Sequence record: OZ346228.1
Length of the DNA stretch: 64,000 nucleotides
Direction: 5' to 3' (one strand)
Source of the DNA: a phage
In this document: positions 1,522-41,874 of the stretch, one piece after another
How the letters are laid out: every line of letters begins with the position of its first letter
Numbering within the stretch: the first letter of the stretch is position 1
Program-made: the position numbers and the translations under genes
The notes under the pieces: model-generated
Database searches by the model: none
The model's input: the letters and a program-made list of their open reading frames with translations, nothing else
Told to the model about the DNA's origin: nothing

Positions 1522-3945
1522 ATGAGCATGTGGTCGTTCGACTTTGAGTCATCCGGTTTGCTGGAAGACCCAGATCTTTATTATCACTGCGGCCTGTTTA
1601 AAGAGCTGAATAAGAACCGTTTTATGCTGTTCCTTCCTCTAAATGACCGCACACACTACTCCGAGGAGGATATAGAAAAGGCTAAGAACTTCATTCTGGC
1701 AAAGAAAACTCTTTATAAAGATTTTGAAGTTCGCATAGCAGATTTTTCAGAGTTGGAAGGTTGGCTTACAGGAAATTCTGACTGGTCACCAACAGCTTTG
1801 AACTGCCATAACTGCTACAGTTATGACTTTATGCTGATGGAAAGATTATCTGGTATTCATTTTGATATGTTCCGTGATCCTAAGTGTATGGGGACTATCA
1901 ACGATCACCAGGTTAACCTGTTTGATACGTTGGCGATGAGCCGAATCTTGTGGCCTGATCGCCCTTTACCAAAAGGTTGTCCGGACTCTGTATTCAACCC
2001 GGTTACTAAGAAAATGCAGCCTGTTGGTCCTCACGGCCTTATGGCATGGGGCTACGCCCTTGGTAACCAGAAAGTTCAAATTGATGACTGGCGCGATCTT
2101 CCGTTATGGAAGTATGTGGATCGTGTATTTGAGGACGTTATCATCCAGGAGCTGCTCTGGAAAGAGCTGGTAGCGGAATCAAAAGGTGTATTCTACGGCA
2201 AATCTGACATGCAGAACTTTATGTACGATCCTGCCAAAGAGAAGCCGAAAGGGTTCAAGAAGATCACCTGGAAGAACGCATTACGTCGAGGCATGTTGCA
2301 GCACTTCCTGATGGAGCTGCAGGCCCGTCAGGGTGTATACTTCGACATAGATGGGGCTATTGCTTTACGTGACCGCTGCGATGCGTGGATGAAAGAGATC
2401 GCTGATCGTGTTGAACCACAACTGCCTTTAAAAGAGCTGTCAATGTCTCAGCGGCCCAAGTTCCCTGAAAAGCCGTTTAACCAAGATGGGACAATCTCTA
2501 ATAATGGTTGGAAATGGTTAAAAGATAAGCTTGGCTATCCTGTGGACATGAGTGCTTTAGAGTTCAAAGCCCCACCTAAGCGAGCATTTACCTCTACAGG
2601 AGATGTCAGTAAGATGGGGATAAAATGGTGTGAAGAGATGGGCTGCAAAGACCACGATAAGATGGCTGATTTCTTGAGAGGTTATATTAAGGGCACCTCC
2701 ACACCACAACCTTTACCTAAAGAGCTGATGGATCAGGCAATAAGCGATCTGCAACAGAAGCGAATGCCTGACTGCAAGATACCTATGAAAATCAGCAATC
2801 AGGACGACATTAAGCGATACCTGATCAGTGCTGGTTGGCTTCCGACAATGTGGAGAACTAAGGATGTAACTAAGGACAGCAAGAAGAAAGCTCTACCTGA
2901 TGCAGATGTTGATGCACGAGTATATGCATACATGGACGAGCTTTTAGAGTCAGAGTATTGTGACCTAATTATCAACTTCTGGAACAAAACTGATGCTAAG
3001 TTTCAGACAACAGTGCACAAGTTCCGAAGCTTTCCTAACTCCGAAAGGATTAAAAAGGAAGTGTTCGGGAAAATACGCAGAAAAGCCAGGGCACTTATTA
3101 CTTCTCCGCAACTGAAAGATACGTTTGGACACCTATGTCCGAATCTTGAAAAATTGAACGGAGAGATGGCTAAAGATATCGTCTTGTGGTTATCATTGCG
3201 AAACCGCAGATCGGTCCTTGATCCAATCAAGGAGGATAAGGTTGATACTGGTCTTCTTAATCACCCACGTTTGAAGATTGACCATAAGCTTCCTGCTAAA
3301 AGCTCTGGATTAACAAACACTTCCCGACAGAAACACAGTATTTGTGCAAACATGCCTAAACCATCTCCTAAAGTGGTTATGGGTAAAGAGATGCGTAGCT
3401 TGTGGGGTGTTCCTCCTGGATACTTTGAGATCGGTATTGACGGGTCCAACTTAGAGCAGCTTATCGGGGCTTGGGGTGCCTTTGAGTTCGACAACGGCTT
3501 GTACTATGATGTTGTAAGTAACGGGGACGCACACCAAAACAATGCTGAGGCATATACAAAAGTAGCAGGCAGAGAGGTGTCTCGTAACGACGGTAAACCT
3601 ATCACGTATGGGGTTATGTACGGGGCACAAAAAGATAAAGTTGCAGATATGCTGGATATCTCCCCAGAGTTGGGGCAAAGGGTGATCGATGCACTTTGGG
3701 ATGCCAACCCAGGTCTTAAGGGGCGCAAAGAGGATCTGGAGAAATTCTGGGAAGCAACAGGTAAGAAGTTTATCTACTCTTTTGATGGTCATGCTATCTG
3801 GACCCGATCTAAACACTCTTTACTTAATGCATACCAACAAAATGGCGGCGCATCGTTGTGTGACTTAGTTGGGATACTCATGCACCATCAAATGGTGAAG
3901 CGTGGGTGGTACGATGAAGGTGTTCGTCGTATTATCTATTACCAT
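1522..3945 (+). CDS. DNA polymerase family A (T7 gp5-like), exon 1
   Basis: RBS AAGGAGA; N-terminal exo motif FDFESSG, HGLMAWGYALG region, motif A IDGSNLEQL, motif B KPITYGVMYGAQ; frame stops 2 codons after ..IIYYH, before any HDE motif C. Confidence 0.85.
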
Positions 3946-4787
3946 AAATAACATTGTGGCTTCGTGCAGTGATGCACGTCGAAAACCTCTTTAATTGACG
4001 GGAAGGCTAAGTTGACTTTTACACCTAAACATGGTAAAAGCTCAATATGCTAATCCGCAGCGAAGACTAAAGGGGTGTAGTTAAAATGGCTAGATCAGTT
4101 GAGTATCACGGATATACCGTGTTTGATGATGGAACAATACCTTTATCGAAACGTGATCATACAACAATGTTTTGTTTTGATAATGGTCGAGGTTACCTTT
4201 GCGTAACCATGTTCATCGAGGGGAAGCAGTGCACAAAAGGTGTCCACCACTTGGTTGCTGAATGCTTTGTATCAAACCCTGATCCTGAAAGGCTCACATG
4301 GGTGAACCATAAGGACGGAAACAAATACAACAATGCATACTGGAACCTTGAATGGACCACCCCTGGTGGAAATATCAAACACGCTTATGATAATGACCTC
4401 AGAGTAAGGCCAGTCGGTGAGTATAATGCCAACGCTGTACTGACCGAGGATGAGGTAACGGAGATTTGCGAACTGTTACAAAGTGGTTTACGACAATGCG
4501 AGATTAGGGATCTTGGGTATCCTTATGAGACGGTCAGAGCCATAAAGCAAAGAAGACAGTGGAAACATATCTCTAAAAACTACACCTGGTAGTAACGTTC
4601 AGAGACTATCGAAAGCATAGCGCCAACATAAATTGGTGCGAAGAAGCGAGTAGAGTAGACCAGCAAGTGCGGTCGAAATGGGAGGTGCCTTGGTAACAAG
4701 GTAGTGAGATAGTCCGATCCATACAGGAAACTGTATGGCTGTGCACGTAATGGTGCGGGGTAGCTTAACGACCTACCTGAACTATTG
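3946..4787 (+). mobile_element. Group I intron interrupting DNA polymerase before motif C
   Basis: Exon 1 ends on U at 3945; AGACTA (P7 5' strand) at 4064-4069; GAGATAGTCCG (P7 3' strand) at 4706-4716; P9-like hairpin CCATACAG-GAAA-CTGTATGG at 4719-4738; terminal G at 4787; joining gives ..YYH-DEYQLQV. Confidence 0.75.
4086..4592 (+). CDS. HNH homing endonuclease, intron-encoded
   Basis: HNH motif WVNHKDGNKYNNAYWNLEW; lies inside the proposed intron between P7 5' and P7 3' elements. Confidence 0.8.
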   Translation: MARSVEYHGYTVFDDGTIPLSKRDHTTMFCFDNGRGYLCVTMFIEGKQCTKGVHHLVAECFVSNPDPERLTWVNHKDGNKYNNAYWNLEWTTPGGNIKHAYDNDLRVRPVGEYNANAVLTEDEVTEICELLQSGLRQCEIRDLGYPYETVRAIKQRRQWKHISKNYTW

Positions 4788-5141
4788 GATGAGTACCAAC
4801 TTCAAGTCCCTGACACACCGAAGTATAAGACTGTGTACACCTTCGACACAATCGAAGAACTGGAAGCATTTAAGGCAGAGCAGGAGGCCAAACTTCATGT
4901 GTTCGACGGTCATAAGTACAAAAAGGCACGCAAGGATGAGGACGGAAACGAAGTGGTTGACAGAGACGGAAACACGGTGTACGATCCTATCCTGAACGAT
5001 GACGGAAAGCTTGAACTTATCTGGAGCCCTGTGGGTGAAATGGTGGTGCATTGCTTCTGGCAAGCTTCTAAAATGATGGGCGTCCCGTTCCAGATCACGG
5101 GTGAATACCTGTGTGGTCGTAATTGGGGTGATTGTCACTAA
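4788..5141 (+). CDS. DNA polymerase family A, exon 2
   Basis: Begins GAT GAG (DE of motif C) in frame after omega-G; C-terminus ..GRNWGDCH resembles T7 gp5 end ..GPNWAICH (from memory). Confidence 0.75.
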   Translation, partial: DEYQLQVPDTPKYKTVYTFDTIEELEAFKAEQEAKLHVFDGHKYKKARKDEDGNEVVDRDGNTVYDPILNDDGKLELIWSPVGEMVVHCFWQASKMMGVPFQITGEYLCGRNWGDCH

Positions 5142-38953: not shown

Positions 38954-40216
38954 TCAGCAACCACAACTTCCGTAGTGCTTAACTCGCTCGATAACTTCCG
39001 CTTGCTTACCTTTATTGTAAGGACGGGAGTTAGGACTGGAAAGGTATCCAGACACACGTCGAATTACACTGATCGTTCCCTCTTCATGGTTTCCACACTC
39101 TGGGCATACAAAGCCTTTAGCTGTTGCACTGAACTCACCAGAGAAACCACACTTGAGACATTTATCCACAGGTTGGTTAATACCAAAATACATAATGTGT
39201 TTATACCCGAAGTCAACAAGAGCCTCTAAAGCATCCAGGTTGTTTTTCAGGTTAGGTGTTTCTACGTATCCGATGTTGCCACCAGAGGATATCATAGCAA
39301 AACCTTCTTCATACTCCCACTTATCAAAAGGAGAGCTATTGATCCATACTGGCTGATGGAAACTGTTGGTGAGATATTCATGCTCGTGCTTCAACACTTC
39401 AGGATATTCACGATCCAGACAGGTTGCAGCTTTATAGCATAGACTCTCAGAAGGGGTGCCGTACAAACTAAACGCTAGTCTACTTTTCTTCTTGTATCGC
39501 TCACAAGCATCTCTCATGTGCTGAAGTATTCCAAGAGCTAAAGCCTTGTCACCCTCTCTGCCCAAAATCTGACAGGTTTCATACACACCAATATACCCAA
39601 TACTGATGGAAGCGTACCCGTCATAGAAGAGTTTATCAATACTCTCTTCAGGATCCAGGCGAGCAAGAGCGCCTTCACACCACATGATAGGGTTCTGCCC
39701 TGCCTTAGTGCCTTTCAGACGGTTAACCCTTACAAGGTGAGCTTCATATGCCAAATCCAGATACTCGTCAAGAACGGAAAAGAAATCAACACCTTCCGTC
39801 TTAGCTTTTGCCGCAATCATTGGCAGGTTAAGACTAACAACACCCAAGTTGAATCTGCCGAGGTATTTCTCCTCACCTGTTTCCAAGTCATTGTATTTGC
39901 TAAGAAAACTCCGGCAACCCATGCTCGTTACTTTACCATCTGTCGAGCCTGTCACTTTACGATTTAGTGGAACAGAAACAAAGTCAGGATAAATCCGCTC
40001 TGCAGAGCATTCCAGAGCTAATCGTTTCAAATCATAGTTAGGATCTCCAGGGTTCATGTTGACACCCTCTTCTAGGAAGAACAACACTTTAGGGAACACA
40101 GGTGTGATACGTTCTTCACCAAGACCCATTTTGTGGACTTTCAAGTAGTTTTTGGTAATCATTCTACCAAAGACTGAGGTGTCCAGACCTAAACTTAATG
40201 TGATGAATGGAGTCTG
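38954..40216 (-). CDS. nrdD: anaerobic ribonucleotide reductase NrdD, exon 2
   Basis: QTPFITLSLG.. continues from exon 1; C-terminal CPECG zinc site and glycyl-radical motif RRVSGYL. Confidence 0.8.
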   Translation of the reverse strand, partial: QTPFITLSLGLDTSVFGRMITKNYLKVHKMGLGEERITPVFPKVLFFLEEGVNMNPGDPNYDLKRLALECSAERIYPDFVSVPLNRKVTGSTDGKVTSMGCRSFLSKYNDLETGEEKYLGRFNLGVVSLNLPMIAAKAKTEGVDFFSVLDEYLDLAYEAHLVRVNRLKGTKAGQNPIMWCEGALARLDPEESIDKLFYDGYASISIGYIGVYETCQILGREGDKALALGILQHMRDACERYKKKSRLAFSLYGTPSESLCYKAATCLDREYPEVLKHEHEYLTNSFHQPVWINSSPFDKWEYEEGFAMISSGGNIGYVETPNLKNNLDALEALVDFGYKHIMYFGINQPVDKCLKCGFSGEFSATAKGFVCPECGNHEEGTISVIRRVSGYLSSPNSRPYNKGKQAEVIERVKHYGSCGC

Positions 40217-41013
40217 CTGTCTCCTCCCTGTGTTTCCACAGGGCCAGACTATCTCTTACTCTACTTCAATAAGATAATAACCCTTTATTGTGAGATGCTT
40301 ACCTTCGGCATTTCCTTCGATAGCCCTATGAACGTTACCTACGTTCAAATTTAAGGCTTTTGCACAGGCATAGAGTGAAGGATATTCACCCACCAAGGTT
40401 TTACCTTTGTATGCCTGCACTTTCCTATAGCACTTACCTGGACAAAGTCCTGTTCGGAAAGCATGTCTCTTATTATCTTCCGGCAAAACCCACTCTAGGT
40501 TAGACGGATGATCATTCAATGTATTGCCATCTTTATGATTCACTTCCCAGTTTTCAGGGTCTTCTGGGACATCCGGCAAACAATACAAGGCAACAATCCT
40601 TGAGGTTTGGATTCGAATCTTTTTACCTTTGTGGTTGAAAGAGTACATATAACGGCGTTTAACATGCTTGTTACCTTTTCCATAACCTCCCCACAATATT
40701 GGGTGTAGCATTCCACGTTTTCCGTATACGTTTCCAACCTCATCAATCACATAGTTTGATTCTTCACCATTAAGAATGATCTTTTTCATAGAGCCTCTCC
40801 ATTTCGAAGTTAGTATTTCAACTAACCCCTACACTACTTGGTTCAGAAATGTTTGTCAAGCATTTCTGCCTTTCGTTAGTCGTTACAACCGTTCCAACTC
40901 CTGTAAGAACTAGTCACGGGATTGGCATAGCTTTCGCCTTAGCGTTCCCCGTTAGCCGGATTTACCGACCCCTCTTATGAGGTTAGGAGAGTTTTACAAC
41001 GGCCAGTTTGTTA
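40217..41013 (-). mobile_element. Group I intron in nrdD
   Basis: On - strand: exon 1 ends on U; AACGGGGAAC, CAATCCCGUG, CGACUAACG (P7 5'), GAGAUAGUCUGG (P7 3'), P9 hairpin CCCUGUG-GAAA-CACAGGG, terminal G. Confidence 0.75.
40256..40789 (-). CDS. HNH homing endonuclease, intron-encoded
   Basis: HNH motif EVNHKDGNTLNDHPSNLEW; inside nrdD intron. Confidence 0.8.
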   Translation of the reverse strand: MKKIILNGEESNYVIDEVGNVYGKRGMLHPILWGGYGKGNKHVKRRYMYSFNHKGKKIRIQTSRIVALYCLPDVPEDPENWEVNHKDGNTLNDHPSNLEWVLPEDNKRHAFRTGLCPGKCYRKVQAYKGKTLVGEYPSLYACAKALNLNVGNVHRAIEGNAEGKHLTIKGYYLIEVE

Positions 41014-41874
41014 ACCGTTGACAGAAGTTAACGTGTTGATTTGATAGAGCAAAGTCTGCATGCTGTCAAATACGTCTTTATCTGTCATTTGCATTGCAAC
41101 AGTTTCAGCATCCGGCAACCAATGTTCCTGGCAAAATTTAAGGTTCTTCTCATAGGTTGCTTCAGCATACTGTGCCAGATAATGATCAATATGGCTCATA
41201 GTCTGACCACCATATTGAGCACTAGCTACCGCACTAGAGATTTGGCTAAGGATTGTTGTTGCAACCCCTATTGACTTCGGCTTACTGACATGGGCGTTAC
41301 CAATGTTGAATCCGTTTTCCAACATATCTGGATAATTTACCAAACAACAGTTTGTTAACGGACTGATCAAGTAGTCAAGATCATGCACATGGATGAATCC
41401 TTTATTGTGCTCTTCGGAGACACGGTCTGGCAGGATCTGTGTTGATGCAAGGTGTTTGCTAAGAATACCTGCAAGCAGGTCGCGATGAGTGTGTACATGA
41501 TTAGTAGGCTTATTTGCGTTTTCTTTTGTAAATTCATCACAAGTTCGATCCAAGAAGCCACTAATATCTGCAAGCAGTTTTCCACCTGCCTCTCTGTTAT
41601 TATCTCTTGTCTGTCTATACTGGATGTATTCTCTGGCTGCACATTTTAAACCCATATCCATAAGAGCATCTTCAACAAGGATATGGATATTTTTTACAGA
41701 GATCGTGCACTGGTCGGTTGGTAGATTGTTAGCAACAACTTCATTAACCGCGCAGGCGATCCGGTAAGCTTCTTCTTCAGTATGTCCAGACTCAAGTAAG
41801 GCGGACTCTGCCGCCTTGATCACCTTAATTCCGTTATAGAACTCTTCTCTACCGTCCCGTTTTACAACTTTCAC
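41014..41874 (-). CDS. nrdD: anaerobic ribonucleotide reductase NrdD, exon 1
   Basis: ATP-cone-like start MKVVKRDGREEFYNGIKV; GFIHVHDLDY..TNCCLVNYPDMLENGF; ends ..NTLTSVNG at splice site. Confidence 0.8.

Follow-up and report, generated by a model that had tools for sequence, protein, structure and literature searches.

In the 64,000-nt stretch of phage DNA analysed here (sequence record OZ346228.1; hereafter, the window), the gene for a family A DNA polymerase is broken off within its catalytic motif C, and a frame encoding the rest of the enzyme resumes 842 nt further downstream. The question raised by this locus is whether the two coding pieces are joined at the RNA level, and what kind of element separates them. 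The window represents a Vequintavirus, i.e. an rV5-like myovirus of E. coli, and about 117 Vequintavirus genomes match the region with 94-99% identity. Our main conclusion, to which we assign a probability of roughly 0.94, is that positions 3946 to 4787 constitute a mobile IA2-like group I intron that carries an I-HmuI-like HNH endonuclease gene and is inserted between the His and the Asp-Glu codons of motif C. A preliminary description of the locus had proposed a group I intron with an HNH gene at this position; each of the elements that it named is found where it was placed, and the fold covaries among homologs. All features given below are on the + strand.

The polymerase gene and its predicted splice junction

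The polymerase ORF (1522..3951) ends with ...RRIIYYH, followed by AAA (K) and then TAA. This agrees with the earlier remark that the frame stops two codons past ..IIYYH, the stop being the second codon after the histidine, at 3951. A gene for a DnaB-like primase/helicase is located upstream of this ORF, at 69-1463. As delimited by the ORF list, the Pfam DNA_pol_A profile and the intronless alleles, exon 1 of the polymerase comprises 808 codons (1522..3945) and ends with ...IIYYH (CAT). Exon 2 comprises 117 codons plus the stop (4788..5141), as indicated by the ORF list, the alignment with T7 gp5 and an intronless homolog. Its frame is open over 4764-5141 and reads DEYQLQV... from 4788, the first codons being GAT GAG TAC CAA (DEYQ).

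Joining 3945 to 4788 yields a protein of 925 aa that contains ...IIYYH/DEYQLQV (the slash marks the junction) and ...IIYYHDEYQLQV..., and motif C is regained as had been anticipated. The spliced junction is predicted to read ...TATTACCAT/GATGAGTAC in the nucleic acid and IIYYHDEYQLQVPDTPK in the polymerase. Motif C (HDE, with the catalytic aspartate) exists in the polymerase only after splicing: the spliced protein aligns with T7 gp5 across the junction (E 1.7e-13), ...IYYHDEYQL being matched to ...AWVHDEIQV, so that YYH/DEYQL corresponds to WVHDEIQV of T7. Splicing also lengthens the match to Pfam DNA_pol_A from profile positions 137-261 to 137-348, with a score on the spliced protein (31.8) that is slightly below the cut-off of 34.3. 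When exon 2 alone is compared with the PDB, only chance hits and no polymerase are obtained. The earlier description of the downstream ORF as having a T7-like C-terminus is therefore borne out for the spliced protein but not for exon 2 taken by itself.

The junction can be read directly from relatives that lack the insertion. The intronless phage DrSchubert has ...TATTACCAT/GACGAATATCAG... (GACGAA after the junction), with 0 inserted bases at the site. In the intronless genome MG065666.1, an uninterrupted ORF encodes a 925-aa polymerase that is 100% identical to the spliced product of the window, while the nucleotide sequence differs from the window's exons at 38 of 2778 nt, all of them synonymous. 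Thus, precise excision restores the reading frame, as shown by the absence of any inserted nucleotide in intronless alleles and by the identical product. The alignment to intronless polymerases, which the preliminary description had put forward as a check, therefore places the junction exactly; the same uninterrupted homolog speaks against the possibility, also raised there, that homologs naturally encode the polymerase as two polypeptides.

The predicted ribozyme fold

The identification of the 842-nt element (3946..4787) as a group I intron with an IA2-like architecture is based on the Rfam model RF00028, on covariation and on its exact absence in intronless alleles. RF00028 (Intron_gpI) matches 3936..4737 over all 253 model positions with 39.1 bits, which corresponds to an E-value of 3e-8 on 1 kb and of 1.8e-6 on the whole 64-kb window. 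The covariance-model search that had been recommended thus returns a full-length match, although one that is under the gathering score of the model (50 bits) and surfaces only under an E-value threshold; a default Rfam scan of the window, which applies the gathering threshold, reports nothing (39.1 < 50). The model treats a large P6 insert as well as the additional P7.1/P7.2/P9.x helices as insertions, and in the alignment 510 nt with the ORF are handled as a P6 insert.

A fold model from P1 to P9.2 was built by hand from the RF00028 alignment and the usual group I architecture. In P1, CCAUAA (3942-3947), consisting of the four last exon bases and two intron bases, is paired with the internal guide UUGUGG (3954-3959). 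The U before the 5' splice site and the G at the 3' end, both noted previously, are U3945 and G4787; the former is placed in a U3945-G3956 wobble of P1 at the splice site and the latter is the terminal intron base (omega G), and both the wobble and omega G are invariant in 11/11 homologs. P10 is a predicted pairing in which GAUG of exon 2 can pair with CAUU (3952-3955). The P2 hairpin CGUGCA-GUGA-UGCACG (3963..3978) shows compensatory changes in 5 of its 6 pairs, and P3, formed by CCUCUU (3986..3991) and GGGAGG (4680..4685), in 3 of 6. P4 (3996-4002 with 4054-4059) and P5 (4005-4007 with 4049-4051) are taken from the fold model, whereas the extended hairpin P5a (4012-4045) also appears when an ORF-less relative is folded without constraints. 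P6 pairs GCG (4060-4062) with CGU (4596-4598), and P6a pairs ACUA (4066-4069) with UAGU (4590-4593), both according to the RF00028 alignment and the fold; a further P6a segment, GGUGUAGUU (4074-4082) with AACUACACC (4578-4586), closes the loop in which the HNH gene lies.

The two P7 elements of the preliminary description are present as GACUA (4604..4608), within the R element GUUCAGAGACUA, and UAGUC (4710..4714), within the S element GAGAUAGUCC. The 5' strand of P7 shows a compensatory change from U-A to C-G in 4 sequences, and the 3' strand is placed by the RF00028 alignment and by covariation. Downstream of the 5' strand, P7.1 consists of UCG (4609-4611) with CGA (4647-4649) and an inner stem (4620-4626 with 4633-4639), as judged from the fold; it is followed by a G-U-A linker (4655-4657), GUAG being invariant in the alignment, and by P7.2 (4658-4664 with 4669-4674), which covaries. 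The P8 hairpin GCCUUG-GUAA-CAAGGU (4687..4702) has compensatory changes in 5 of 6 pairs. The P9 hairpin with a GAAA loop, also part of the earlier description, is found at 4719-4738 as CCAUACAG-GAAA-CUGUAUGG; like P9, P9.1 (4742-4746 with 4753-4757) and P9.2 (4759-4763 with 4773-4777) are supported by fold and covariation. The linking of P7.1 and P7.2 by G-U-A between P7 and P3' defines subgroup IA2 (PMC3428280), and the window has P7.1 at 4609-4649, GUA at 4655-4657 and P7.2 at 4658-4674. By this criterion, the modelled architecture of the intron is IA2-like.

For the analysis of covariation, the variable insert in P6a was cut out of 11 homologous introns and the remaining cores were aligned. 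The introns come from Vequintavirus, Avunavirus, Seunavirus, an unclassified Vequintavirinae phage, and Aeromonas, Pseudomonas and Vibrio phages; it should be noted that they are related and that some are near-duplicates. When the fold, counted as 12 helices, is imposed on the 11 introns, 98.6% of 699 cells are paired and 29 of the 65 pairs are changed on both sides, i.e. are compensatory. If the 3' partners are moved by 1-3 columns, 33-41% of the cells pair and 3-8 pairs change; because the tested structure goes back to one of the sequences in the alignment, the proportion of paired cells is inflated relative to these slid controls, the compensatory counts being less affected. In 500 column shuffles, neither the observed pairing nor the compensatory-pair count nor the covariation score was ever reached. 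Compensatory changes are especially frequent in P2, P3, P8, P9 and P9.2, the P7 pseudoknot includes the U-A to C-G exchange, and the core from P3 to P8 with its P3/P7 pseudoknot is supported by covariation. P5a was omitted from the counted structure since it lies in a length-variable region that is misaligned by MAFFT. P1 is invariant and P10 nearly so, and hence covariation is uninformative on both. An unconstrained minimum free energy fold of the natural ORF-less intron of phage JEP1 recovers P1, P2, P3, P5a, P6a, P8, P9, P9.1 and P9.2 (z = -2.5).

The HNH gene and the distribution of the intron

The HNH gene that had been noted in the intervening 842 nt is the ORF at 4086..4592, which encodes an I-HmuI-like homing endonuclease of 168 aa. 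The ORF matches PHROG 59 ‘HNH endonuclease’ with an E-value of 6.5e-38, and the best solved relative of the protein is I-HmuI (1U3E; E 4.4e-6), the nicking endonuclease encoded by the intron in the SPO1 polymerase gene. In the alignment with 1U3E, the active-site motif is recognized as VHHLVAECF...VNHKDGNKYNN...NLEW. Pfam HNH_3 is not reached at its curated cut-off (17.7 bits vs. 24.8). Members of the family abound in phages, with 556 records at E below 1e-10; orthologs with 45-71% identity, encoded in the same P6a loop, are found in Av-05, SSE121, Csp-D17, A5-4, SPA01 and phiA019. A candidate ribosome-binding site, AAGGGG (about 4064-4073), is located beside or partly within the P6a stem. This stem begins 4 nt 5' of the HNH ATG and takes in the last codons of the ORF. 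Given its location at both ends of the ORF, folding of the ribozyme may limit translation of the HNH protein, by analogy with what is said of the PhiI and W31 introns (PMC3428280).

Independent sequencing of about 30 genomes has revealed the same 842-nt element, with 94-100% identity, and shorter forms are found among close relatives. JEP1 contains a 328-nt ORF-less version at the same insertion point, in which a short P6a hairpin replaces the ORF, while the ORF-less intron of rV5 and MaxTheCat, at exactly the same point, is 276 nt long and more diverged. In JEP1 and rV5, a 14-nt hairpin occupies the P6a position at which the window holds the HNH gene, and both ORF-less versions (328 and 276 nt) retain the ribozyme. 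In a sample of 60 evenly spaced rows from the 117 matching Vequintavirus records, 29 genomes are intronless, 15 have an ORF-less intron and 16 an intron with the HNH gene. An active cycle of intron gain, ORF loss and intron loss may be under way within Vequintavirus.

Beyond this genus, insertion at the same H/DE site is seen in the Avunavirus phages Av-05 and 18-1-2, the Seunavirus phages SSE121 and Csp-D17 and the unclassified Vequintavirinae phage A5-4, as well as in Aeromonas phage phiA019, Pseudomonas phage SPA01 and Vibrio phage K460. These introns have the 5' exon end UACCAU and the guide UUGUGG in common. Altogether, the H/DE-site intron is present in at least eight phage groups, including Certrevirus, Aeromonas Plateaulakevirus and Pseudomonas Pakpunavirus. 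A weak hit to the 43-kb phage ECO104 4-5-2 was considered as a T7-like copy and rejected, since what matches is the 3' half of a related intron that is located elsewhere in the polymerase gene.

The exons next to the insertion were also compared between alleles. Four of the 38 synonymous differences from MG065666.1 are located at +2, +5, +8 and +11 of exon 2, against an expectation of ~0.16 differences per given 12-nt stretch (binomial P about 2e-5, for a stretch that was chosen post hoc). This cluster may mark the target of the endonuclease or a co-conversion tract. One of the differences, GAU (vs. GAC), creates the third pair of P10. Strict linkage of the exon 2 variant GATGAGTACCAA to the intron can be dismissed because the intronless phages JeffSchatz, Pr121LW and rV5_ev147/156 match the intron-type junction in a single piece, with 98.3% identity (59/60 or 58/59).

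Known introns at the site and alternative explanations

The intron itself is already known: an identical sequence is annotated in GenBank with the same junction, and the insertion site has been published. The intron of Escherichia phage AlexBoehm (MZ501048.1), a member of the BASEL collection, is 100% identical to that of the window over 842 nt. In the AlexBoehm record the polymerase CDS is entered as a join of two pieces, and its product, QXV75624.1, is that of the junction equivalent to 3945/4788. An exact-sequence look-up finds QXV75624.1 to be the product of the YYH/DE junction in AlexBoehm, and hence the depositors used the same junction. According to the BASEL paper (Maffei et al. 2021, PMC8594841), of which the searchable text contains neither RNA structure nor splicing data, intron boundaries were set via comparative genomics. 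The HNH protein of AlexBoehm (QXV75625.1, ‘putative homing endonuclease’) is identical to that of the window. The two phages differ at 34 aa of the polymerase, and in that the nrdD intron of the window has an HNH ORF whereas that of AlexBoehm does not.

In E. coli Pol I, motif C is formed by H881-D882-E883, which places site 881 at the H/DE boundary; on this numbering, the intron site of the window is that of the introns of the T7-like coliphages PhiI and W31. PMC3428280 (2012) describes the latter as self-splicing IA2 introns that interrupt the polymerase at site 881 (E. coli numbering), in which P7.1 and P7.2 are joined by G-U-A and, citing Bonocora and Shub 2004, an HNH ORF (I-TslI in W31) is located in P6a. 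The PhiI and W31 introns, like that of the window, reside in phages of enteric bacteria; however, their hosts are podoviruses of the T7 group and not rV5-like myoviruses, and the likeness concerns site and described architecture. The introns of SPO1 and SP82 resemble that of the window in that they, too, are of group I, interrupt a phage gene for a family A polymerase and encode HNH nicking endonucleases (I-HmuI and I-HmuII), but they belong to phages of Gram-positive hosts, and their site, 674, is in the fingers region and not in motif C. The introns of Bastille and Pf-WMP3 share site 674 with those of SPO1 and SP82, and the phiL7 intron is at 676 (PMC3428280).

The closest comparison with experimental data is the Pectobacterium phage CB7 (Certrevirus, Vequintavirinae), which has an intron at the same site (RRIIYYH/DEYQLEV), with the same P1 and guide and a closely similar 3' half. 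Splicing of this homologous polymerase intron was confirmed by RT-PCR and Sanger sequencing (PMC7344957). At 687 nt, the CB7 intron differs in length from that of the window, and its HNH protein, CB7_50 (127 aa), belongs to another lineage, with only 38% identity over 53 aa. In CB7, the polymerase gene is interrupted by a second intron as well, which has no counterpart in the window. In a literature search for group I introns in Vequintavirus and its subfamily, only two papers, both on Certrevirus, were found, and the rV5 genome paper reports terminase introns only.

With these comparisons in hand, three other explanations of the locus can be weighed. The polymerase might not be spliced at all but assemble post-translationally from polypeptides of 809 aa and about 117 aa, as does the NrdA of Aeromonas phage Aeh1 that is split by mobE. 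Many GenBank records of relatives do list two separate polymerase CDSs, and PMC7344957 cites a precedent for non-splicing and reports that one of the CB7 insertions is unspliced. Such a split, however, would part H from DE within the catalytic motif itself, and the 5' end of exon 2 has no in-frame ATG or GTG from which a second polypeptide could start; the only candidate is TTG 4785, within the last bases of the intron, for which no ribosome-binding site is visible. Moreover, the compensatory changes maintain the fold even in ORF-less variants, which would be unexpected were splicing dispensable, and the homologous CB7 intron splices. We therefore regard a two-polypeptide polymerase as very improbable. 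Even more remote, and in our view refuted, is the notion that the insertion arose as an artefact of sequencing or assembly, or that it resembles group I introns only by chance: apart from the sub-threshold Rfam score nothing speaks for it, while the occurrence of the element in the roughly 30 independent genomes and the covariation of its fold speak against it.

A less extreme alternative, which we find unlikely though clearly less so than the other two, is that the intron is still spliced out by its ribozyme while the HNH gene, decaying or domesticated, is carried along without homing activity, the intron persisting by vertical descent only. About a quarter of the sampled Vequintavirus genomes have ORF-less introns, and hence the ORF is dispensable and gets lost. 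On the other hand, the ORF of the window is full length, its motif residues align with those of I-HmuI, and the orthologs in the same loop extend to phages of Escherichia, Salmonella/Cronobacter, Aeromonas and Pseudomonas. The mixture of intron-plus, ORF-less and intron-minus alleles among phages that are 90-99% identical also fits an ongoing homing cycle.

A mobile, probably self-splicing intron is therefore the reading that we retain. By analogy with its relatives, the intron is expected to splice in the phage of the window, and the steps below are those that its class would imply. The polymerase gene would be transcribed as a single pre-mRNA, in which the intron RNA would fold into the P1-P9.2 ribozyme. 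An external guanosine would attack after U3945, held in P1 by the guide UUGUGG; the freed exon 1 would then attack after G4787, with P10 (GAUG/CAUU) aligning exon 2, and the ligated mRNA would encode the 925-aa polymerase with an intact ...YYHDEYQ.... The HNH protein, encoded in the P6a loop and thus outside the catalytic core, is predicted from its sequence to be an active and specific endonuclease; in mixed infections it would presumably nick intronless alleles near the insertion site, and recombinational repair of the nicked allele would then copy the intron in. Whether the intron and its HNH gene form a single lineage that spreads horizontally and in every case targets the H/DE site of motif C, perhaps including the introns of PhiI and W31, is a proposition for which we see even odds.

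These results do not change what is known of group I introns or of phage polymerases. In the literature searched, we found no description of the distribution and RNA structure of the H/DE-site intron, and the covariation-backed structure and the breadth of carrier phages are, as far as we found, undescribed; their interest is modest. The main importance of the finding is for annotation, as the intron is missed at the default Rfam threshold. Many GenBank records of rV5-like phages, including that of rV5 itself (DQ832317.1), list a truncated polymerase and ‘hypothetical proteins’ instead of one spliced gene. Finally, several of the sampled genomes belong to the public BASEL collection, so that the homing and the loss of introns in E. 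coli phages could readily be studied in this natural system.

A second group I intron in nrdD

The anaerobic ribonucleotide reductase gene of the window, nrdD, is split by a second group I intron of 797 nt (40217-41013, minus strand), placed by a match to the Rfam family Intron_gpI (27.8 bits, E 0.0046, for a search of the whole window) and by the junction relative to the intronless gene of JohannBauhin. In the latter, ...GTCAACGGG runs directly into CAAACTCCA..., exactly at the nrdD intron junction of the window. The exons lie at 41014-41874 and 38954-40216, both on the minus strand, and the intron ends with G40217. P1 reads CAACGGU|UAA, with GCCGUUG as the guide, and the P8 region holds an HNH ORF of 177 aa (40256-40789, minus strand). 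The Escherichia phage AlexBoehm (MZ501048.1) carries the same nrdD intron but without a 617-nt ORF segment, and its record annotates nrdD as a join.

Insertions and annotation of the polymerase gene in relatives

Among the relatives, extra insertions were found at other places in the same polymerase gene, including the polymerase regions PQ014731.1 52706-55474 and OR449013.1 128846-131615. In the Avunavirus Av-05 (KM190144.1; piece L006, 1-2643) the gene is in three pieces, with an additional ORF between pieces 1 and 2, while VB-EcoM-WM and Mangalyan have ~970 extra nt upstream of the motif C-site intron and the Pectobacterium phage CB7 has two polymerase introns. The 3′ half of a related IA-type intron is also found in a 43-kb phage contig (OR844702.1; piece L017, ~1300-1580), preceded by a different HNH-like ORF. 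Its P7′, P9, P9.1 and P9.2 are similar to those of the window's polymerase intron. Its insertion point in the polymerase is a different one, immediately 5′ to the motif A region (...QCDYSAMEVVM).

The rV5 record (DQ832317.1; piece L003, 1-1530) annotates no spliced gene; it lists a truncated polymerase and the hypothetical ORFs 225-227, which overlie the intron, here 276 nt long and without an ORF, together with exon 2, the polymerase part 3′ of it. Many other records have two 'DNA polymerase' CDSs, or exon 2 as a 'hypothetical protein'. Furthermore, ~16-20 records titled 'Campylobacter phage' (MG0656xx; host C. jejuni) are genomes of Vequintavirus; over the regions compared, they share 95-99% identity with E. 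coli phages. Their host label looks doubtful; the one record examined, MG065666.1 (L020), is flagged UNVERIFIED.

Intron-like sequence at the terminase gene

A 51-nt stretch of the window's polymerase intron core, covering the P4′-P6-R element region, has counterparts of 94% identity in many Vequintaviruses, located within the gene for the large terminase subunit or close to it (e.g. MZ501083.1 1241-1292). Terminase introns are reported in the rV5 paper. This recurrence of core sequence suggests that a related intron resides at the Vequintavirus terminase large-subunit gene.
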